A stretch of 11,813 nt of DNA from a virus (lineage: Duplodnaviria; Heunggongvirae; Uroviricota; Caudoviricetes), in the IMG/VR virus record IMGVR_UViG_2869947659_000003, positions 1 through 11,813 of that record; one strand, given 5' to 3'. The notes under the pieces are model-generated. The model saw only the letters and a list, made by a program, of their open reading frames with translations. It ran no database searches and was not told the origin of the DNA. Shown piece by piece: positions 1 through 11,813 of this stretch (positions are counted from its first letter, which is position 1; every line of letters starts with the position of its first letter). The position numbers and the translations under genes were made by a program.

Positions 1-819
1 TTAAGCAGCCATCTGATGATATTTTTCCCTGAAGGCTGCCGGGGAGATATTCCCCAGACGAGAGTGACGACGCTGACGATTGTAGAAAATCTCAATGTAT
101 TCCCGTATTACTGAGATGGCTTCATCCCGGTTATTAAAACGATAGTGGCTCAGGCTCTCATTTTTCAGCGTTCCCCAGAAGCTTTCCATCGGAGCGTTGT
201 CGTAACAGTGACCTTTACGCGACATTGATGTTTTCAGACCAGACTGCTCCTGTATGACCCGGTAATCGTATGCGCAGTACTGTGAACCTCGATCAGAGTG
301 GTGGATTAGCCCGGCAGGTGGGCGCTGGCTCCTGAGCGCCATAAACAGGGCTTTACCTGTCAGCTCTTTTGTCATGCGCTCTCCCATGGCGTAGCCGACA
401 ATTTCGCACGTATAAACATCTTTGATGCCAGCGAGGTACAACCATCCCTCCTGTGTGGCAACATACGTCAGGTCCGCCACCCAGACCTGATTTGGTGCTG
501 TAGGAGCGAACGTCTGGTTCAGCAGATTTGGCGCAACTGGCAGATTGTGGTTCGGGTTCGTAGTCGCTCTGAACTTGCGTTTCTGCTTACAGCGTAGCCT
601 TAGCTCCTTACGAAGACGTGCCAGTCGGTCACGACCAACGATGATGCCATTCTCTGCCAGCTCCGTCTGGAGCCGCCGGGTTCCATATGTTTCGCGAGTG
701 CGGATATGTGCCACCTTAATCTCCAGTTTTAGCCGCTCATCACTTTGTTTTCTGTCTGAGGGTTCATGCTGTACCCAGTTGTAATAACCGCTCCTGGATA
801 CACCAAATACCTGACACAT
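1..819 (-). CDS. IS3-family transposase OrfB (DDE/integrase catalytic core), probably made as an OrfAB fusion by -1 frameshift
   Basis: 272-aa ORF with rve-like motifs (HSDRGSQYCAYDY, KGHCYDNAPMESFWGTLK, FYNRQRRHSRLGNISP). Stop codon sits at window positions 1-3. The ATG at 819 is probably not the biological start. Confidence 0.9.
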   Translation of the reverse strand: MCQVFGVSRSGYYNWVQHEPSDRKQSDERLKLEIKVAHIRTRETYGTRRLQTELAENGIIVGRDRLARLRKELRLRCKQKRKFRATTNPNHNLPVAPNLLNQTFAPTAPNQVWVADLTYVATQEGWLYLAGIKDVYTCEIVGYAMGERMTKELTGKALFMALRSQRPPAGLIHHSDRGSQYCAYDYRVIQEQSGLKTSMSRKGHCYDNAPMESFWGTLKNESLSHYRFNNRDEAISVIREYIEIFYNRQRRHSRLGNISPAAFREKYHQMAA

Positions 820-854: not shown

Positions 855-1157
855 TTAACGCGTATTTTTCAGCGACTCCTGTGCAAAATACGCTGTTGCT
901 TTTTTTAATATATCTCGCTCAAGGCGAGCTTCATTTAACGCCTTACGCAGTTGCAGAATTTCAGATTCCAGTTCAGCCACCGTGCGGGAACCAGGAGTAC
1001 CGAGCCCTTTTCTGGCGGCGGTAACCCATTGTCCTAAAGTGCCTTCAGGAAGGGATAATCGGGAAGCGCCTTCACTGATCGAAAGTTGATTTTCAAGAAC
1101 CGTTCTGACAGCTTCGGCTTTGAACTCTTTAGAGTAACGTTGGTTTTTTCTGCTCAT
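855..1157 (-). CDS. IS3-family transposase OrfA (helix-turn-helix DNA-binding subunit)
   Basis: 100-aa ORF directly upstream of OrfB; N-terminal HTH-like region and C-terminal leucine-zipper-like segment (LESEILQLRKALNEARLERDILKKATAYFA) typical of IS3 OrfA. Confidence 0.85.
   Translation of the reverse strand: MSRKNQRYSKEFKAEAVRTVLENQLSISEGASRLSLPEGTLGQWVTAARKGLGTPGSRTVAELESEILQLRKALNEARLERDILKKATAYFAQESLKNTR
897..908 (-). other. Putative programmed -1 ribosomal frameshift site (A-rich slippery run) near the 3' end of orfA
   Basis: Minus-strand mRNA reads GAT ATA TTA AAA AAA GCA at the codons for ILKKA; the IS3 family typically uses an A AAA AAG-type heptamer here. Not experimentally supported. 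Confidence 0.5.
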
Positions 1158-4498: not shown

Positions 4499-4555
4499 AT
4501 CATAACTGGATGTTCATCCAGTTATGATTATAATCATGATCGCATTTTGTGCAAT
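4499..4555 (-). promoter_or_regulatory. Sigma70-like promoter for the capsid-like operon overlapped by a 30-bp perfect palindrome (candidate operator)
   Basis: Minus strand -35 TTGCAC (4549..4554), 16-bp spacer, -10 TATAAT (4527..4532). Palindrome ATCATAACTGGATG tt CATCCAGTTATGAT at 4499..4528 covers the predicted transcription start. Confidence 0.5.
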
Positions 4556-5610: not shown

Positions 5611-5837
5611 TGTCTACCTTATCTACCTTACTGGCTCTCATGCCAGTAATGGCGCGGCTTTCAGCGGGGTAGAGTGCTTTTATCCACTATCTACCCCGTA
5701 TCTACCTCCCTGTCTGATTCAGGTAAAATCAGGTAGAGAGGGTAGATAGTAGGTAGACAGTGAAAAAAGGCTGTCTACCTAAGTTAATATACTGAATTAA
5801 ATGTATTTTTCTTTACTCAGGTAGACAGGGTAGACAG
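5611..5837. repeat. Iteron array (candidate replication origin) with a DnaA-box-like site
   Basis: At least 11 copies of TCTACC / GGTAGA-containing 8-9-mers in both orientations (for example TGTCTACC 5611, TATCTACC 5620 and 5688, GGTAGAGAG 5732, GGTAGATAG 5741, GGTAGACAG 5752, 5820 and 5829, CTGTCTACC 5771). TTATCCACT at 5680..5688 is an 8/9 match to the DnaA box. Lies immediately 3' of the primase gene. Confidence 0.7.
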
Positions 5838-5850
5838 CCATTGCAAAAAA

Positions 5851-7599
5851 TTATAAAAACGCGTCGCAATCGTCTGTTGTTATTGCGTTAGTCTGCGTTA
5901 CTCCCTTAACTTTCCGCGTAATATATTCATGTCCGTAAACTTTCGCGGCTGGCTTCATAGCCTTGCCAAAGTCATTTACGTTTAGCGGTTTGCTCCTGCC
6001 TGCGTATGCCATAAACGCCAGATAGACGCGGTAAAGGCTGTTTCTGGTCGTGTACTTCACTGAATCGCCACCGCCACCCATCATCAGGCCGCGCGCTTCC
6101 TCCAGAAAATTCAGGAACTGGCAAAACTCAATAACCGGATCCGTCTGTTGCTTTATTGCCAGAGCTTCATCACCGTCACGCTGTTCCAGTAGTAAAGCCC
6201 GTGCCTTCTCAGGGTCGGTAAAGTTCGCCAGCAAGCGGCGGATAATGACAGGGATTTCAGCCGCGATCTTTTCCGGTAGCTCCCTGTCTTTTTCTGCCTC
6301 GCTTACGATATTGTCGAAGCGGAAAATAACCCGACGACGTGACACGCCTCCGGCCCGTTCGGTGAATATCATCGGGTTGTTATTGGTCGCCAGCACCACC
6401 GCCCTGATTACCGTAGTGAAACGCTTTTCATATTTCGGGTTGATTTCCACGGGGTCGCCGCCCGTGATTTTCTTGATGCCCGTGCCTTCGCCTGTATATT
6501 TCGGCTGGTCTGCCAGGACGATAAGACGACTCCCGACAACCTGCGCACGCCCACCAGCATCATCAAGCGATGTCATTTCCGCGCTTACCGTGTTTTGTTT
6601 CCCCGCTAAAAGGCTGGCGATGTGGGTGAATGTACTTTTGCCGCTCCCGCCGTCTCCGGTGGCCTCAATAAACATCTGCCAGTCGTACCGGTTCGCCATA
6701 ATCATGTACAGCGCGGCACATATACGCATCATCTTGCGCTGGTCTTTTCCAGCTGCGTGATCAAGCCATTTATGAAAGTTTGGCGCGTTATCGCGGATGT
6801 TCTCCCCAGGTGCTGGTGGCGTGTACTCAATGCCGTTGTGCGTGGTGATCCAGTTCTCCGGCGTGTGCGGGGAAAATTCCCCCGTTTTCAGGTCAAGCGC
6901 ACCATTGGCGAACGGCAGCAAATCGCCGGACGGCTCCCCCATTGGTTCGGCAATAACTTTTAACGCTTCAACGGCGTTATTGATCACGCGTTTGCTGAAA
7001 GTGGCCCTGTGCTCTGAATAGATCGCCACCATTTCGCGGCTCAGCTCCATTGTGCTGATCGGACACCATACCCCGCCGCGCCATACGTGAACGATTTCAC
7101 TTTCCGGATGCACACAAACGCCATCAAAGCGCTCGGCAAGCAGCTGCGCGCGCTCACTGTCTGCCATTTGTGCCAGTTGCGTATTTTTCTGCTCCGGCAT
7201 GGTAAGCCCTGCGGCAATATTTTCACGCTCAGCATTCAGATAGCGCCGCCAGTTTTCACACTTCTGGACGTGCATTCCTTCGGGGTAAAAATTTGCGTCC
7301 TGAATATCTGCCGCCGCCAGCTTCTGACCAATCTTTTTGGTCTCCACTAAATCCAGTTCTCCGGCCTGGTACAGCCTTACGCGCTTTTTCCCATCCGGAA
7401 CAATTTTCAGCGCATCAAGTTCGGCAAGCTGATTTGGCCCAAGCCACACAGGCGGCACATTATCGCCGGATGCGGGGCCATCCTGCTCCTGCCATTGTTT
7501 CGCGTGCGACCAGGCATCACTACCCGCGAAAATAATTACCTCTGTGTCTTTGTGTTTTATTCCGCGTGGCTGTTTTTTTACGTTCGGTGCCAGTTTCAT
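5851..7599 (-). CDS. P4-family primase/helicase (alpha-like replication protein; D5-type SF3 helicase with Walker A)
   Basis: 582-aa ORF with Walker A EATGDGGSGKST and a downstream Walker B-like LIVLAD segment; overall resemblance to the P4 alpha / phage-plasmid primase C-terminal region. Coupled by ATGA overlap to the upstream small ORF. Confidence 0.88.
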   Translation of the reverse strand: MKLAPNVKKQPRGIKHKDTEVIIFAGSDAWSHAKQWQEQDGPASGDNVPPVWLGPNQLAELDALKIVPDGKKRVRLYQAGELDLVETKKIGQKLAAADIQDANFYPEGMHVQKCENWRRYLNAERENIAAGLTMPEQKNTQLAQMADSERAQLLAERFDGVCVHPESEIVHVWRGGVWCPISTMELSREMVAIYSEHRATFSKRVINNAVEALKVIAEPMGEPSGDLLPFANGALDLKTGEFSPHTPENWITTHNGIEYTPPAPGENIRDNAPNFHKWLDHAAGKDQRKMMRICAALYMIMANRYDWQMFIEATGDGGSGKSTFTHIASLLAGKQNTVSAEMTSLDDAGGRAQVVGSRLIVLADQPKYTGEGTGIKKITGGDPVEINPKYEKRFTTVIRAVVLATNNNPMIFTERAGGVSRRRVIFRFDNIVSEAEKDRELPEKIAAEIPVIIRRLLANFTDPEKARALLLEQRDGDEALAIKQQTDPVIEFCQFLNFLEEARGLMMGGGGDSVKYTTRNSLYRVYLAFMAYAGRSKPLNVNDFGKAMKPAAKVYGHEYITRKVKGVTQTNAITTDDCDAFL

Positions 7600-8131: not shown

Positions 8132-8405
8132 AAATTTTCTCCCTTATTCTTTTAATGTCCTCATTAAGGATGTCTGTAACTTTTATCAGCGAGTTTTTGG
8201 CAATTATTTTTATTGTTTTAAGTTTTCTTTTGTCGTGCTCCGACTGTGATTTTCTCTCCATAATCTCCACCATGTGGGTAACATCAACGAGCGCACGTAT
8301 CAGTATTTGCATTGCTTCTTCTGCTGCGTCCGGTGTGGTTTTATTGCACATGTACCCCTCCGCATTTTTTTTCGTTAGAAATAAGCGTTCTTCTTTCCTG
8401 TTCAT
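8121..8405 (-). CDS. Hypothetical protein, up to 94 aa (start uncertain; internal ATGs at 8351 and 8309)
   Basis: ORF overlaps the upstream ORF (8341..8571) by 65 nt in a different frame, so the true start may be an internal Met. Confidence 0.4.
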   Translation of the reverse strand: MNRKEERLFLTKKNAEGYMCNKTTPDAAEEAMQILIRALVDVTHMVEIMERKSQSEHDKRKLKTIKIIAKNSLIKVTDILNEDIKRIREKICDA

Positions 8406-8571
8406 CGCTCAGGAATACGCAGACCTCACCGCTAAGGCGTTTAAGTAAGCCGATGATTGCCCCTGATTCGCTGTCGGTCATCATGCCAGGGTAATCCTCT
8501 GCCAGTGCGCAAATAACTTCGATTTGGTGGGCGCGTTCTGCTGCCTGTTGTAGTGTGATTTCCTGACTCAT
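8341..8571 (-). CDS. Hypothetical protein, 76 aa
   Basis: ORF whose ATG overlaps the stop of the upstream 66-aa ORF (ATGA at 8568..8571). Confidence 0.5.
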   Translation of the reverse strand: MSQEITLQQAAERAHQIEVICALAEDYPGMMTDSESGAIIGLLKRLSGEVCVFLSDEQERRTLISNEKKCGGVHVQ

Positions 8572-8768
8572 AAGCCTACCCCCTGACGAATACGGGCGGC
8601 GAATACCATCACGCAGCCATCAGGAGATTGCTGGCGTGCTTCCTGTTCGCTGGTGGCCACGATGTGAATCACGCGCGGTTGTGCGGTGCTCAGGGCGATA
8701 AAACGCCAGATGTATTTATTCAGGTTGTACGAGTCCCGCCCTTGCGGGTGTATGGTATAATTTCTCAT
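8568..8768 (-). CDS. Hypothetical small protein, 66 aa (possibly Icd-like); first gene of the replication operon
   Basis: Sub-ORF MRNYTIHPQGRDSYNLNKYIWRFIALSTAQPRVIHIVATSEQEARQQSPDGCVMVFAARIRQGVGL, taken from the C-terminal end of the 469-aa track ORF, with a GAGG RBS. Its WRF...PRV..I.A.SE.EAR...FAAR pattern resembles what I recall of Icd-like proteins in P4-like prophages; tentative. Confidence 0.45.
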   Translation of the reverse strand: MRNYTIHPQGRDSYNLNKYIWRFIALSTAQPRVIHIVATSEQEARQQSPDGCVMVFAARIRQGVGL

Positions 8769-8859
8769 AGCTGCCTCGATAATCTTGCTATCGTTGGTGG
8801 TTAGAAGCCCCGTTACTGCTCCTACAGTGCGGGGTTTCGTCGTTTCTGCACCTTGCATT

Positions 8860-8945
8860 AACAAGGTGTAAGTAACTTTATTTATAGGTGGCTTACATGT
8901 CAATGCTTTTATGTAAGACTTTTTATGTGTATATTGTCTTACACT
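8860..8945. promoter_or_regulatory. Divergent promoter/operator region with four TGTAAG / CTTACA half-sites
   Basis: TGTAAG at 8867 and 8912, CTTACA at 8892 and 8938; CTTACAT-N12-ATGTAAG forms an inverted repeat. Sits between the plus-strand RHH-like gene and the minus-strand replication operon. Confidence 0.45.
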
Positions 8946-8964
8946 TTCATTGAGAGGATTACAG

Positions 8965-9270
8965 ATGGCTACAGGTTCAAAAAACGCAAAATCACAATCA
9001 CTGACAGCTCGGATCCCGCATGATGTTATTGAAGGCATGGAATCCGTAAAACTGGACGGTGAAAGCAACGCCGGATTCATAGTAACCGCCATGCGCGGTG
9101 AAATCGCCCGCCGCCAGGCAGAAGGAAGCAGAGAAAACCCCCTGATTTCTTCGCTCGATGCACTGGCGCAGGTGGAAAAACTCGGAATCAAAGCCGCCGA
9201 GGAGATCGGGCAGCTCGTCACTGTCGCACGTGAAGAACTCCAGCGCCGCAAGACCAAAGAACCAGAGTAA
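8965..9270 (+). CDS. Probable ribbon-helix-helix (CopG/Arc-like) DNA-binding protein, about 101 aa
   Basis: Strong RBS AGAGGA 6 nt before the ATG at 8965 (the track ORF begins at TTG 8950). N-terminus LTARIPHDVIEGMESVKLDGESNAGFIVTAMRGEIARR fits a beta-strand/helix/helix RHH pattern. Fold assignment is by pattern, not by search. Confidence 0.55.
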   Translation: MATGSKNAKSQSLTARIPHDVIEGMESVKLDGESNAGFIVTAMRGEIARRQAEGSRENPLISSLDALAQVEKLGIKAAEEIGQLVTVAREELQRRKTKEPE

Positions 9271-9327
9271 TCACCATCAGCGCCGTGGTGTAAGGTATTA
9301 CGGCGCATTGCTATGCAGGACAACACA

Positions 9328-9501
9328 ATGACCGATAAAGAATTGACCAAAACATTATCACCGGCACGGAAAAGACGGCGCAGAAAGATAGAGCATGAAT
9401 CAGAAAGATTCGCGCCATGTGCTTTTGCCCTTGAGCAATTCCTTAAAGAGTACAGGGAAAAGCGCTCATTGCAGGTATGGCAACGAACTGAACCAGACTG
9501 A
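9328..9501 (+). CDS. Small basic protein, about 57 aa (the track ORF begins at the upstream ATG 9313)
   Basis: AGGA 7 nt upstream of ATG 9328; N-terminal KRRRRK cluster; followed by a plus-strand terminator. Confidence 0.45.
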   Translation: MTDKELTKTLSPARKRRRRKIEHESERFAPCAFALEQFLKEYREKRSLQVWQRTEPD

Positions 9502-9577
9502 TTGCATTGCCCACCAGCCGCAAATGTGGCATTGTTGGCAATGCTCATGCGTTGGGGATAACGTGTAGCTTGTGTCG

Positions 9578-9609
9578 AGGGGCCACCGTAGCGGGTGGCC
9601 TTTGTTTTG
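9578..9609 (+). terminator. Rho-independent terminator ending the plus-strand cassette
   Basis: Stem GGCCACC / GGTGGCC with loop GTAGCG, followed by TTTGTTTTG. Confidence 0.6.
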
Positions 9610-9612
9610 CCC

Positions 9613-9977
9613 GTTATTCGGCAATTGTGGCGCTTCTCCACATGGTTGATATAATCCCACTGCTCAGATTCATTTTTTGCGCAGTAGGTTAATTGTTCAC
9701 AAAGGCGCTCCGGCAACGGGGCGCTTTTTGTTTTTATTAGTTTGTAGAAACCTGACTCAGAGATAATGCTCATATTCTGATTGCCGTCAGGGGTGTAAGT
9801 TAAATTTACTCCCTTTTTATCATCAAACATCTGCAACACTCTGGCGTTAACAATATTGGTTTCACTCCCGCCAGTAAGGCCGGAAATAACCGGAATACTT
9901 TCGGCAAAATTTTGCAGATTCTGTTTTTCAGGACGAACGAAGCCCCGCCCTTGTTCGGGAGAATATCCAGTATTCAT
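9613..9977 (-). pseudogene. Possible 5' remnant of a gene downstream of alpA (N-terminal ~120 codons of the 469-aa track ORF); extent uncertain
   Basis: The N-terminal part (MNTGYSPEQGRGFVRPEKQ...EQWDYINHVEKRHNC) has protein-like composition. The rest of the 469-aa frame runs antisense through the plus-strand genes and is Ser/Cys/Arg-rich, so it is probably not a real protein. No in-frame stop exists until 8568. Confidence 0.3.
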
Positions 9978-10029
9978 GGTTAGATCTCTGTATTAGTGGA
10001 TGGGTGGCGGCTGTGTGCCGCCAGCCTGA

Positions 10030-10218
10030 TTAGTGAACTGCCTCGCAGCTGTCCTTCCATGCCAGAACTTCGGATAAAGACCAGCCAACGGAACGACCGC
10101 CCAGCTTACGCCGTGATGGGAATTGTCCGGCTTTTTCCAGGCGGTACCGACATGAGCGGCTCAGGCCTGTAAGTTGCTGACATTCTTTTTCACGTATAAA
10201 GCGATCTGTGCTTAACAC
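10030..10218 (-). CDS. alpA: AlpA/Vis-like winged-helix regulator (prophage excisionase / transcriptional activator family)
   Basis: 62-aa protein resembling CP4-57 AlpA and P4 Vis-type proteins in size, composition and position next to a P4-type integrase. Start is GTG at 10218 with AAGGGGGA upstream. Confidence 0.8.
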   Translation of the reverse strand: MLSTDRFIREKECQQLTGLSRSCRYRLEKAGQFPSRRKLGGRSVGWSLSEVLAWKDSCEAVH

Positions 10219-10254
10219 AATTCCCCCTTTGTTGTTTCTTAAAGAGTCATTGGG

Positions 10255-10300
10255 TGGATTATTGGGTTGGGTTGTGTCGGATTGTGTCAGGGTGTTTGTG
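10255..10300. repeat. Tandem roughly 10-bp direct repeats (GGTTGTGTC GGATTGTGTC AGGGTGTTTG) upstream of alpA
   Basis: Seen directly, in the alpA 5' region. Confidence 0.4.
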
Positions 10301-10498
10301 GAATGGCAAACACTGGCGGCGGTCGTTTTACAGAAGCATGGGGAATGAGAATAAAAACTCTTTTAATTCATTATGATGCAAAGGCATAAAATTTTACTTT
10401 TACGCCTTTTTTACATATTTTTAAGAGTGATTCGCCAGTGTATAAAAAAACAGTACACCTATAAAAATCAAATGGTTATTACGATGGCTGATTTTTAA

Positions 10499-10560
10499 CC
10501 CGTTGTTCCATTTTGTTCCTTGTTGTTCGTCGTTGTGTCTCGTTGTTTCACGTTGTCCGC
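10499..10560. repeat. Six tandem roughly 10-bp direct repeats (consensus tCGTTGTTyC) just 3' of the integrase gene
   Basis: CCGTTGTTCC, ATTTTGTTCC, TTGTTGTTCG, TCGTTGTGTC, TCGTTGTTTC, ACGTTGTCCG in helical phase. Candidate binding array for Int arm-binding domain, AlpA/Vis or IHF-type proteins. Confidence 0.4.
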
Positions 10561-10583: not shown

Positions 10584-11813
10584 TTATATTTCTCTGGCTA
10601 TTGGCAATGTGGTTACGTTTTCATGTGTTCCCGCCAGTATCCCTAACCGCTCCGTCCACATATCCAGCGCGTCACGTTTCGCATCCAGATAACGGGAATG
10701 GTTATAGACTCGTTGCATCCCTGGCATCTGATGACCTGTAAGCTGCTCCACGACGTGAGGATCCACGCCTAAATCGTTCAGCATCGTTGTAAAGGTGCGC
10801 CGGATGTCATGCAGTGACCAGTGAGGGTGTTTTAGCCTCCTGTGCGCTAATCTACCGTACTGCGACACGCTTGTTTCCTGTTTCACTTCCCCCAGCAATA
10901 AGCCCGTGTGCCTGTTCTGCTCCACCAGCTGCGTGACGAACGGTAGTATTGCTTCCGGTATGGGCCGGAATATTGCCACCTTCGTTTTGCTGTGTTCTTT
11001 CGGCACGGTCCAGAGCATTTCGGTAAAATCCCACTCGCTGATCTCCGATAACCTCAGTTCTACCGTCCGGCATCCGAAAACAATCAGGAGGCGGATTAGT
11101 GCGACGTAGTAAGGGGAAAATATTTTTTTGTCCAGTGCCTGCAATAATTCGCCAAGTTCTTTGGTGCTTAAGACACGCTCGCTTATATCCGGTTTTTTCC
11201 TAACGTCCGCCACACTCATATCATCAAGAACGTTGCTGATTGCATAGCGCCGCCTCCGGCAGAACTTAAGCGCCTGTTTGCACGTCTGTAGCAAGAATCC
11301 GGCAGTAACAGGCGTTCGCTTTGCCACCTGGTCAAAACAGGCCAGCCAGTGCCGTAGCTCGCATTTATCCAGCGGCATAGCACCAATGTGCTGTATTACG
11401 TGATTATTAAGGCGCTTTTTCAGGGCGGCATAATCCACGCGGTTTTCCTTTGCGTACGACTCAAGCCAGTAGGTGAGCGCATCGCCAACCGTTACCGGCT
11501 TTAACGCTTCCTGTACGGTGTAATTAAGCTCATGACGTGGATTTTTCCCCTCTGCCAGCCATGCGCGACACTGGGCGGCTTTTTCCCTGGCTGATTTCAG
11601 GCTCAGATCAGGATAATTTCCCAGCTTAATGCGTTCCGGTGGTGCCCCCCTTCCCGTTCCGGCCCTGTAAGTGAAATACCAGGTTAAAAGGCCACTGGTT
11701 GAATGCCTGACGCTCAGGTTTCCACCGTCATTAAGAAAGGCTGTTTTTTGGGCGGGTGTGCCGTTGATTTTCCTCAGCTGTGTATCGCTCAGTTTGTTAA
11801 GTGCTCTGCTCAT
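10584..11813 (-). CDS. int: P4-type tyrosine integrase (site-specific recombinase)
   Basis: 409-aa ORF with N-terminal arm-binding-like region and C-terminal catalytic motifs (HDIRRT, GHQ, RVYNHSRYL with the catalytic Tyr). The ATG is at the window edge; alignment with the P4 Int N-terminus suggests this is close to the true start. Confidence 0.93.
   Translation of the reverse strand: MSRALNKLSDTQLRKINGTPAQKTAFLNDGGNLSVRHSTSGLLTWYFTYRAGTGRGAPPERIKLGNYPDLSLKSAREKAAQCRAWLAEGKNPRHELNYTVQEALKPVTVGDALTYWLESYAKENRVDYAALKKRLNNHVIQHIGAMPLDKCELRHWLACFDQVAKRTPVTAGFLLQTCKQALKFCRRRRYAISNVLDDMSVADVRKKPDISERVLSTKELGELLQALDKKIFSPYYVALIRLLIVFGCRTVELRLSEISEWDFTEMLWTVPKEHSKTKVAIFRPIPEAILPFVTQLVEQNRHTGLLLGEVKQETSVSQYGRLAHRRLKHPHWSLHDIRRTFTTMLNDLGVDPHVVEQLTGHQMPGMQRVYNHSRYLDAKRDALDMWTERLGILAGTHENVTTLPIAREI

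Follow-up and report, generated by a model that had tools for sequence, protein, structure and literature searches.

A candidate repressor gene of Gram-negative phage satellites, with covarying candidate operators, nested antisense in a conserved open frame

The window that we analyzed, an 11,813-nucleotide stretch of the viral record IMGVR_UViG_2869947659_000003, carries a plus-strand cassette that a first-pass annotation had described as a gene for a ribbon-helix-helix (RHH)-like DNA-binding protein (ORF1) and one for a small basic protein (ORF2), with a strong ribosome-binding site, a dedicated terminator, and four TGTAAG/CTTACA half-sites across which the cassette diverges from the replication operon. 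Each of these elements was found in the sequence, and the half-sites fell on both of the predicted divergent promoters. The cassette had also been called the only plus-strand coding unit of the island, which holds for genes but overlooked a 469-amino-acid minus-strand open frame running through all of it. The features, in window coordinates, are:

8768–8568, minus strand: Icd-like (Kil-like) gene, in frame with and forming the last 66 codons of the 469-aa frame
9977–8568, minus strand: 469-aa open frame that runs antisense through the entire cassette, the proposed counterpart of P4 eta
8804–8838, minus strand: conserved hairpin of the leader that connects the predicted promoter with the Icd-like start; a conserved GGTTAGA (8799–8805) flanks it
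8867–8872, plus strand: half-site 1, TGTAAG (extended GGTGTAAG), located at the start predicted for the minus-strand promoter; –98 from the ORF1 ATG, conserved across alleles
8875–8903, minus strand: predicted sigma-70 promoter of the Icd-like/replication operon (TTGACA 8903–8898, 17-nt spacer, TAAAGT 8880–8875)
8892–8897, minus strand: half-site 2, CTTACA on the plus strand, directly adjoining the minus-strand promoter's –35; –73, conserved
8912–8917, plus strand: half-site 3, TGTAAG, where the –35 region of the ORF1 promoter would lie; –53
8930–8935, plus strand: predicted –10 (TATATT) of the ORF1–ORF2 promoter, read from the sequence
8938–8943, minus strand: half-site 4, CTTACA on the plus strand, just 3′ of the ORF1 promoter –10; –27, conserved
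8952–8958, plus strand: ORF1 Shine-Dalgarno element GAGAGGA, read from the sequence, 6 nt 5′ of the ATG
8965–9270, plus strand: ORF1, 101 aa from ATG 8965, YlcI/YnfO family, predicted repressor
9280–9306, plus strand: intercistronic hairpin (ORF1–ORF2) with an 11-bp stem but lacking a U-run (–16.9 kcal/mol, z = –2.7)
9328–9501, plus strand: ORF2, 57 aa, with a start conserved across loci (ATG 9328)
9578–9609, plus strand: intrinsic terminator of the ORF1–ORF2 transcript, a 10-bp stem (9578–9603) followed by GUUUUG (–18.5 kcal/mol)
9699–9738, plus strand: second terminator, predicted to shield alpA from convergent transcription (–20.5 kcal/mol, z = –5.6)
10030–10218, minus strand: alpA (Pfam Phage_AlpA, 3e-18), convergent with the cassette

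ORF1 comprises an RHH domain (approximately residues 9–54) and a long amphipathic C-terminal helix (residues 59–98). The NCBIfam YlcI/YnfO model NF041551 matched residues 9–50 with 72.5 bits (cut-off 30) over model positions 1–42 of 42, and the PHROG model that ORF1 matched was phrog_949 (61 positions). RefSeq labels ORF1 merely a 'YlcI/YnfO family protein', and we found no paper describing a function for this family, whose namesakes YlcI and YnfO we take to be E. coli K-12 prophage genes (DLP12, Qin) away from a satellite context. In profile searches ORF1 reached no curated RHH family threshold: its top Pfam match, to PSK_trans_fac (presumably a member of the RHH clan), scored 17.8 bits, below the cut-off of 28.3, weak matches to this family appeared in 20 of 27 ORF1 family members, and a profile search of PDB sequences returned no RHH proteins. 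Structure prediction nonetheless bore out the proposed RHH N-terminus: this domain models as a ribbon-helix-helix fold, with a β-strand followed by two helices (pLDDT 84.5), and its best structural matches were the RHH domains of Arc, NikR, CopG-type proteins and antitoxins. A helix-hairpin-helix suggested in the C-terminal half by the PDB profile search (Hef, E = 0.0095, with G74 invariant) was dropped because AF2 predicted one unbroken helix there, with a pLDDT of ~95.

ORF2 encodes a hydrophilic protein with a pI of 9.9 and an RKRRRRK run. It had been characterized as very basic, which is accurate for its first 21 residues (pI 11.8) and only for those; beyond this arginine-rich N-terminus the protein has a conserved core, ERFAPCAFALExFLKEY. 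The ratio pN/pS was 0.34 in its own frame, rose to 0.52 in the antisense frame paired with it and lay at 0.9–1.5 in the other four, and the length of every indel was a multiple of three, a pattern that marks ORF2 as a genuine gene kept by purifying selection. The sole family that it matched was phrog_21027, a PHROG family of unknown function, and searches of Pfam, NCBIfam and PADLOC gave no match of any kind, toxin and defense families included. Two very large libraries yielded 36 and 9 homologues, the nine coming from a search of 1.84 billion representative proteins with an ORF2-alignment profile, none of them informative. Half of the ORF1-bearing loci (11 of 22), including every locus outside E. 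coli, had no ORF2, and where ORF2 was present its partners included forms of ORF1 without the C-terminal region and, in locus L016, an unrelated protein. ORF2 is an E. coli-restricted orphan. ORF2-like DNA was present in 1505 of 5426 complete E. coli genomes (28%), and the biology is therefore common. The cassette region had up to six matches per genome, a number that does not imply as many separate islands.

ORF1 occupied the same slot in all 22 related loci, which span at least eight genera, always transcribed toward alpA and divergently from the Icd-like/replication operon, whose genes include a primase/helicase. It is a conserved core gene of the satellite family, EcCICFT073 included, and the island in the window is an E. 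coli phage satellite of the EcCICFT073 type. The model satellite EcCICFT073 carries the cassette, with C_RS30120 as a short form of ORF1 and C_RS30800 as ORF2; we found no paper that describes it there. Searching 50,697 phage records with ORF1 by tblastn gave zero matches at E 1e-5. ORF1, a core gene, and ORF2, an E. coli accessory, are not one evolutionary unit, a point that the first-pass annotation had missed. Given the arrangement of the locus, an alpA transcript would have to traverse the cassette antisense to get to the replication genes.

All four half-sites fall in a 77-bp stretch that spans two back-to-back promoters, overlapping the –35/+1 regions of both the minus- and the plus-strand predicted promoters, with half-sites 3 and 4 on either side of the plus-strand –10. 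By our own estimate, the expectation for four half-sites in such a 77-bp stretch is ~0.03, and the window as a whole holds 12 copies of TGTAAG/CTTACA, compared with 4.5 expected from shuffles (12 or more in 0 of 200 shuffles). A search of positions 8300–10300 found nothing promoter-like besides the minus-strand TTGACA-17-TAAAGT, of which the TTGAC and a TAAnnT –10 kept their positions in a majority of the 22 loci. The ORF1 promoter had no recognizable –35; its –10 was in register in relatives (TATATT, TATACT or TATAAT), as was a GGAG/GAGG at the place of the Shine-Dalgarno element. Two further candidate sites were set aside: the TGTAAG at 9289, which occupies the intercistronic hairpin's loop, fails to track operator type in other alleles and is probably coincidental, and the palindrome at 4499–4528, which had been named as a further target for a binding test, does not contain the half-site.

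When we compared the ORF1 β-strand residues 12–17 with the repeated sites upstream across the 22 related loci, the positions of the sites (–98, –73, –53 and –27) were stable in most loci, and the sequence of the sites switched with the residues. In E. coli, Enterobacter and Klebsiella, SLTARIP was paired with GTGTAAG, and in E. coli, Xenorhabdus and Photorhabdus the pair was LTTVRVP and GTGTGTTTCA; further pairs were QLNARFP with GGTATTCA, QISIRIP with TGTGATTCA, ALAARVP with GTGTwwAC, and ALKARVP, the EcCICFT073 allele, with GTGGGCCAC; half-site 3 was degenerate or missing in some alleles (L017, L018). Because the β-strand and the operator covary, ORF1 and its four sites are marked as a predicted cognate repressor–operator pair that exists in several specificities. 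In L016 the slot holds an unrelated 59-amino-acid protein, Arc-like by eye, with inverted repeats of its own; its sole database match was weak (E 0.99), to the RHH protein ArtA.

The hairpins of the locus also recurred among its relatives. The terminator of the cassette has a second stem allele, GGCGACC..GGTCGCC, with the same T-run (L013, L016, L017); the stem of the intercistronic hairpin, which sits in the 57-nt gap between ORF1 and ORF2, was preserved with altered bases in L016–L018; and the stem at 9699–9738 was swapped for a different sequence in L017 and L020. On the other strand, the 99-nt leader of the Icd-like gene folded with –32.3 kcal/mol (z = –4.1), and its stem was retained with different bases in other genera.

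The long minus-strand frame was stop-free through ORF1 in 21 of 22 loci (chance 0.04–0.36 within ORF1) and had no stops in the 150-nt operator spacer in 20 of 22 loci (chance 0.012–0.094 per locus). Because stops are scarce in any gene's wobble-matched antisense frame, the strong openness signal comes from the non-coding spacer only. This signal indicates that selection maintains the frame open, and we infer that the frame is translated. In our test of its non-Icd-like part, stretches without a plus-strand gene on the other side showed no amino-acid constraint. At least 13 of 22 loci had the frame fused to the Icd-like domain, whereas six closed it just 5′ of the Icd-like start, so the in-frame fusion is not universal; in compact loci the frame begins 6–10 nt past the alpA stop. 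NCBIfam phage_ICD_like matched the C-terminus of both the island frame (8.4e-19) and the P4 eta frame (1.4e-20). The N-terminus of the 469-aa frame gave a weak Bro-N match, and a Klebsiella island carries in the same slot a full-length Bro-N protein that shares just a 17-residue stretch with the frame in the window; the Bro-like part, in which we saw no amino-acid constraint, may be a remnant. RefSeq sometimes annotates the 469-aa frame as an extended Icd-like protein. Such a nested frame would explain a recurrent annotation error, over-long 'Icd-like' proteins that overlap the repressor gene.

The reading that we prefer, with a probability of roughly 0.65 as a whole, is that ORF1 encodes a repressor whose gene is nested in a read-through frame. 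ORF1 dimers would bind the four (G)TGTAAG sites over the two promoters, with binding at sites 1 and 2 turning off the constitutive-looking Icd-like/replication promoter and binding at sites 3 and 4 limiting ORF1's own promoter. The long C-terminal helix, which is missing from short natural ORF1 alleles, probably lets dimers assemble further, as Mnt of P22 does, into higher oligomers. Different strand/operator pairs would allow co-resident islands to be controlled independently, like heteroimmune phages. By analogy with P4, in which PLL-vis-eta is set against PLE-kil, helper-induced AlpA-dependent transcription would enter upstream, be translated through the open frame, and pass the repressor gene and operators into the replication genes irrespective of the repressor, colliding on the way with transcription of ORF1; ORF2 would be a co-transcribed, E. 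coli-specific accessory protein. We propose more tentatively, at somewhat below even odds, that the locus is a two-strand switch replacing the P4 CI RNA, with an RHH 'immunity' repressor on one strand and, on the other, a translated frame selected only for openness.

Induction of EcCICFT073 requires AlpA activation, which is also sufficient for it, and AlpA overexpression alone induces replication (PMC6092414). The RHH protein is therefore one control layer at most; the fold, the operators, the covariation and the core status of ORF1 agree with the master-repressor switch that had been suggested, whereas a role as sole master does not fit. The AlpA of P. aeruginosa is an antiterminator (PMC7969949), which may offer a lead for the island AlpA. 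The 'putative repressor' of the EcCIMP1 paper is a PerC-like protein unrelated to ORF1.

Much the same biochemistry would serve copy-number control, with ORF1 acting like the plasmid RHH protein CopG to throttle the replication-operon promoter during active replication and not to silence the integrated island. We regard this as unlikely, though it draws on the presence of a primase/helicase in the target operon, and induction of EcCICFT073 by AlpA alone (PMC6092414) fits a repressor that only tunes. CopG, however, shares an operon with rep, whereas ORF1 is divergent, predicted to be autoregulated and equipped with terminators of its own, and its many operator specificities resemble immunity types; by sequence alone, roles in copy number and in quiescence are inseparable. 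Somewhat less probable still is that the cassette, or at least ORF2, is cargo of a 'Bro zone', acting as an anti-phage or helper-interference factor. The region from alpA to the replication genes has been described as dynamic (PMC10111431), ORF2 and the Bro-like piece come and go among loci, and the frequency of ORF2-like DNA in E. coli genomes is in keeping with such a role; the invariant presence and position of ORF1 and the placement of its candidate operators on the island's own promoters are not, and PADLOC returned 0 matches among nine proteins of the region. ORF2 by itself may nevertheless be such a factor.

The first-pass annotation had offered a toxin–antitoxin or abortive-infection module as its alternative. 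Our results support neither, and we consider an addiction module in which ORF1 would be the RHH antitoxin and ORF2 a small basic toxin very improbable. Beyond the absence of toxin and defense matches, ORF2 is hydrophilic and just 57 aa long, ORF1 does without it in half of the loci and everywhere outside E. coli, and the gap with its hairpin speaks against tight coupling of the two genes. Nor is there a common toxin-binding tail, because ORF2 accompanies both ORF1 lacking its C-terminal region and the unrelated L016 protein. We can scarcely credit the converse reading of the locus, that the long Bro/Eta-like minus-strand ORF is the real gene and ORF1 and ORF2 are its shadow frames. Its conserved openness, the extended Icd-like annotations in RefSeq and the weak Bro-N match would suit it, but pN/pS is lowest in the plus frame for ORF1 (0.22, compared with 0.32 antisense) as for ORF2, and the minus frame, tested outside its Icd-like part, showed no amino-acid constraint where it faces no plus-strand gene. 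Furthermore, ORF1 models with high confidence as an RHH protein, has its own ribosome-binding site, predicted promoter, operators and terminators, and belongs to a family with members that we take to lie outside satellites (the prophage genes YlcI and YnfO).

When Gram-negative phage-inducible islands were first described, it was unclear whether they have a global repressor (PMC6092414), and the literature that we searched identified none for EcCICFT073. ORF1 is a testable candidate for the repressor so far missing in Gram-negative satellites: for islands said to be AlpA-controlled it supplies a concrete candidate with mapped candidate operators, and its natural specificity variants make clean swap experiments possible in EcCICFT073. 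Specificity classes would also explain the coexistence of several related islands in one genome. Newly recognized here is that the cassette is nested, in antisense orientation, within a P4 eta/kil-related frame whose openness is conserved; openness across the promoter region would tie the islands mechanistically to P4, and it offers a rare example of apparent selection for translatability and nothing else. The two-strand switch, if true, would be a protein-based replacement for the CI RNA with many exchangeable specificities, present in EcCICFT073.

Among known systems, the YlcI/YnfO family is covered by ORF1 over its full model (residues 9–50), and ORF1 differs from its ~60-aa PHROG model by an extra 45-residue helix and a satellite regulatory slot. 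Stl-type repressors are helix-turn-helix proteins and are co-oriented with int. Like Stl (Rpr) of SaPIs and other Gram-positive islands, ORF1 would be a satellite repressor divergent from an excision/replication operon across a shared control region (PMC6092414); ORF1, however, is an RHH protein convergent with alpA and int, and we saw no sign of a helper protein that removes ORF1, the published induction proceeding via AlpA (PMC6092414). The P22 immI repressors Arc and Mnt showed no detectable sequence homology to ORF1, act at one compact operator instead of four spaced half-sites, and control an antirepressor where the island has replication genes. CopG of plasmid pMV158 is encoded by the first gene of the operon that it represses and has one pseudo-symmetric site, unlike the divergent, four-site arrangement of ORF1.

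The closest likeness in layout is to the P4 left operon (PLL-vis-eta, with nested kil). In both, a long frame that ends in an Icd/Kil-like domain comes after an alpA/vis homologue, a predicted constitutive-type promoter (the island counterpart of PLE) lies inside the long frame 5′ of the Kil-like start, and the frame starts in close linkage to the upstream gene, in the islands at compact loci. Translation of the long frame in P4 has been reported to prevent termination (PMC10111431). The Rfam families C4 and isrK, which stand for the CI RNA and its seqA target, were both detected in P4 as a positive control and in neither the window (E up to 1), EcCICFT073 nor four other islands; the single Rfam match in the window was a spurious microRNA on an inverted repeat (5675–5772). 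The two systems differ in that P4 immunity is exerted by the CI RNA, whereas the island has a predicted repressor gene and operators antisense in the frame; in that the frame is ~200 aa in P4 and 469 aa in the island, with no amino-acid constraint seen there outside the Icd-like part; and in that the P4 record, judged by annotation only, has no RHH gene in its left-operon region. By this analogy, the island looks like a P4-type two-promoter design with a protein repressor in place of the CI RNA.

The window is an EcCICFT073-type phage-inducible chromosomal island of Gram-negative bacteria, whose recognised island genes are all on the minus strand:

11813..10584, minus strand, integrase
10218..10030, minus strand, alpA
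8768..8568, minus strand, Icd-like gene
7599..5851, minus strand, primase/helicase
minus strand, small ORFs and the DUF4222, SSB, lambda E-like capsid, head-decoration and terS-like genes

The model island EcCICFT073 (NC_004431.1, 1377930-1388654) has the same layout and carries, between alpA and the Icd-like gene, an opposite-strand 59-aa 'YlcI/YnfO family protein' and a 57-aa hypothetical protein. At the island's late-gene end, immediately beyond the terS-like gene, the window holds an IS3-family element (1-1157; orfA, 1157..855; orfB, 819..1, truncated by the window edge). A long inverted repeat of CTACC-type short repeats (5675-5772) lies directly 3′ of the primase/helicase gene, a placement consistent with the replication origin described for such islands; this repeat also produced a match to mir-3927 in Rfam, which we rejected as spurious. 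Downstream of the integrase stop and ahead of alpA are five or six (G)AACAACG repeats with ~10-bp spacing (10491-10560), which may serve as arm sites for integrase or as sites for AlpA.

The comparison covers 22 loci (the window, E. coli relatives, EcCICFT073, and loci from Klebsiella, Enterobacter, Xenorhabdus, Photorhabdus, Scandinavium, Phytobacter and others), and every one has a gene that converges with alpA and diverges from the replication operon. In the window this gene is ORF1 (8965-9270, plus strand), preceded, as the first-pass annotation had it, by a ribosome-binding site (GAGAGGA). The ribbon-helix-helix (RHH) N terminus suspected there agrees with both a match to NCBIfam YlcI_YnfO_N (72.5 bits, cut-off 30) and the AF2 model, and on these predictions ORF1 is an RHH protein. 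Pfam PSK_trans_fac matched below threshold, as it did in 20 of 27 family members, and a search of 5.8 billion proteins returned 253 homologues spread over Enterobacterales, some carrying the source names Arc-like or CopG-family. The full-length model (pLDDT 80.8) has helices at residues 19-28 and 35-54 and a single long helix at 59-98, and a Foldseek search with it returned nothing informative; modelled separately, the N-terminal 56 residues (pLDDT 84.5) give two helices preceded by an extended segment. A heptad-like pattern marks the amphipathic C-terminal helix, which by analogy with Mnt probably mediates oligomerisation. Three loci (L017, L018 and L020) and EcCICFT073 (L022, 30474-30653) encode 59-aa forms in which an exact in-frame deletion between two RRQ/RRK motifs removes this helix entirely, providing a ready-made natural test of its function.

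The four TGTAAG/CTTACA half-sites reported upstream of ORF1 (8867, 8892, 8912 and 8938) are present within 77 bp, and the window holds 12 copies of TGTAAG or its complement against 4.5 expected, a number never reached in shuffles. Within 8300-10300 a single sigma-70-like site was found, on the minus strand (TTGACA, 8903..8898; 17 nt; TAAAGT, 8880..8875), with site 2 touching its −35 and site 1 covering the predicted start, while sites 3 and 4 lie on either side of a plus-strand −10 (TATATT, 8930-8935). In most of the 22 loci repeats recur at −98, −73, −53 and −27 from the ATG, and minus-strand TTGAC and TAAnnT and plus-strand TATAnT stand in register in most loci. The sequence of the repeat varies together with ORF1 residues 12-17, the predicted DNA-reading strand.

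Covariation of ORF1 residues 12-18 with the operator repeat (residues; repeat; loci)
SLTARIP; GTGTAAG; E. coli, Enterobacter soli, Klebsiella
LTTVRVP; GTGTGTTTCA; E. coli, Xenorhabdus, Photorhabdus
QLNARFP; GGTATTCA; L012
QISIRIP; TGTGATTCA; L019
ALAARVP; GTGTwwAC; L014
MTTVRIP; GTGTATTTCAC; L018, L020
ALKARVP; GTGGGCCAC; EcCICFT073

A repressor and its operators, in several immunity-like types, would be expected to show this pattern. One E. coli locus (L002) combines the strand and operators of Xenorhabdus with a remaining protein and flanks like those of the window, and specificity therefore appears to move as a module. Another locus (L016) fills the slot with an unrelated 59-aa protein that has its own inverted repeats and looks Arc-like by eye, its sole database support being a weak match to the RHH protein ArtA. 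As judged from these comparisons, ORF1 belongs to the conserved core and has operators to match, and the proposed repressor switch gains from both the slot kept in 22 of 22 loci and the covarying operators. A near-perfect palindrome between the SSB gene and the capsid module (4499-4528, ATCATAACTGGATG..CATCCAGTTATGAT), suggested earlier as a further ORF1 target, is not an obvious one because it lacks the TGTAAG half-site.

The alternative proposal, a toxin-antitoxin or abortive-infection module, turns on ORF2, which is indeed small and basic (57 aa, conserved start ATG 9328, pI 9.9, with its charge concentrated in RKRRRRK). Across ten alleles, pN/pS is lowest in ORF2's own frame (0.34), against 0.52 for the antisense frame paired with it and 0.9-1.5 for the remaining four; its indels are all multiples of three. 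By these measures ORF2 is a real gene. It is separate from ORF1, occurs in 11 of 22 loci, each from E. coli, and is found alike with long ORF1, short ORF1 and the L016 replacement protein. No Pfam, NCBIfam or PADLOC model matched it, and its one match is to a PHROG family of unknown function. With neither a match in those libraries nor a constant presence in the slot, ORF2 is unlikely to be a toxin. Its relatives are very few in two very large libraries, the named ones coming from E. coli or Shigella. ORF2-like DNA is common even so, occurring in 1505 of 5426 complete E. coli genomes. The probiotic E. coli strain Nissle 1917 carries a 99.3% identical ORF1 (H33, NZ_CP022686.1 940103-940408) and an O157:H7 strain (H21) an identical ORF2 (100%), so the cassette is common to commensal and pathogenic lineages.

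The dedicated terminator described for the plus-strand unit is a 10-bp hairpin with a U-run (9578-9609), kept in relatives with a different stem sequence and the same T-run, and a second plus-strand terminator follows at 9699-9738. On the other side, a conserved hairpin (8804-8838) occupies the leader that runs from the predicted minus-strand promoter to the Icd-like start. The bases of its stem vary from genus to genus, an almost invariant GGTTAGA adjoins it (flank, 8794-8805), and no Rfam family matched it. On the plus strand a T-rich run comes after it, and it may therefore double as a stop for rightward transcription. Directly after the ORF2 stop is CCCACCAGC (9510-9518), which 13 of 22 loci (two of them lacking ORF2) carry after the stop of ORF1 or ORF2 and which is complementary to TTGGTGG (8794-8800) in the leader ~700 nt away; the two could pair at long range within a read-through RNA or be a shared protein site.

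Antisense to the plus-strand cassette runs a 469-aa minus-strand ORF (9977..8568), which begins 53 nt after alpA in the ORF listing, crosses in turn the terminator, ORF2, ORF1 and the operator/promoter spacer, and terminates in frame as the Icd-like gene. Some openness is expected, because it shares its third codon positions with ORF1 and ORF2; inside ORF1, no stop interrupts it in 21 of 22 loci (codon permutation gives a chance of 0.04-0.36). More telling is the 150-nt AT-rich spacer, where it is stop-free in 20 of 22 loci (chance 0.012-0.094 per locus by dinucleotide shuffles; ~14 sequence classes, 12 open) and the remaining two minus frames have 1-9 stops. No amino-acid constraint was detected in any frame of the spacer or the Bro-like N-terminal part, and in the ORF1 region the plus frame is better conserved than the minus (0.22 vs 0.32). 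What selection maintains therefore seems to be the translatability of the minus frame and not its product. Its first ATG lies 6-10 nt past the alpA stop in compact loci and 3 nt past a Bro-N gene in a Klebsiella locus; in the window, a GC-rich hairpin without a U-run (TGGCGGC-ACACA-GCCGCCA, 10005-10023) stands between the alpA stop and ATG 9977. The N-terminal 122 codons (9610-9977, minus) have weak Bro-N/antirepressor matches at residues ~50-90 only, and other loci hold a full 192-197-aa Bro-N gene (L014, L019) or only the last 40 codons (L012, L018) at this position; this part may be a decaying Bro-N gene kept open within a read-through frame. The conserved openness also explains why RefSeq sometimes calls an over-long 'host cell division inhibitor Icd-like protein' overlapping the YlcI/YnfO gene or ORF2 (L001, 8989-9507, 172 aa rather than ~66; genome matches H22, H26, H27, H33 and H34).

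From these features and their conservation we infer binding, repression, read-through and a need for translation. While the island is quiescent, ORF1 expressed from its weak promoter would be bound at all four sites, blocking the replication-operon promoter and limiting its own synthesis, and the two plus-strand terminators would keep its transcription from entering alpA. AlpA-dependent transcription has been demonstrated for EcCICFT073 (PMC6092414). Upon helper induction such transcription would come in from upstream, with translation following it along the open frame, and would pass the operators from outside, so that the Icd-like and replication genes would be expressed with or without bound repressor. 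It would work against ORF1 expression as well, through convergent transcription and pairing with the ORF1-ORF2 mRNA.

The closest parallel is phage P4, where vis, the alpA homologue, is reportedly followed by the eta frame, with kil as its C-terminal 65 codons. PLE, the constitutive promoter, and the immunity RNA CI are said to lie inside eta, which is reportedly translated only from the late PLL transcript. NCBIfam phage_ICD_like matches the C terminus of both the P4 eta-frame ORF (8812..8168, 1.4e-20) and the window's long ORF (8.4e-19). Rfam detects C4 (CI RNA) and isrK (seqA region) in P4, whereas neither was found in the window, EcCICFT073 or four other islands; the leader hairpin at 8804-8838 sits where P4 has its CI RNA. 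In its annotation, the P4 record has no plus-strand gene opposite eta. Given the common Icd-domain frame and the lack of C4 and isrK, the island appears to have the P4 architecture with a protein repressor and operators in place of RNA. Translation of P4 eta is reported to prevent termination (PMC10111431). The combination of an RHH repressor, a divergent satellite slot and a nested eta/kil-type frame is not described in the papers searched, including those on EcCICFT073 and the 'Bro zone' survey, and satellite biologists should find it of real interest, since that model island allows a direct test. The novelty is this combination, its individual parts being of known kinds: RHH repressors with operators in Arc/Mnt and CopG, a satellite repressor divergent from replication genes in Stl, and nested eta/kil in P4.
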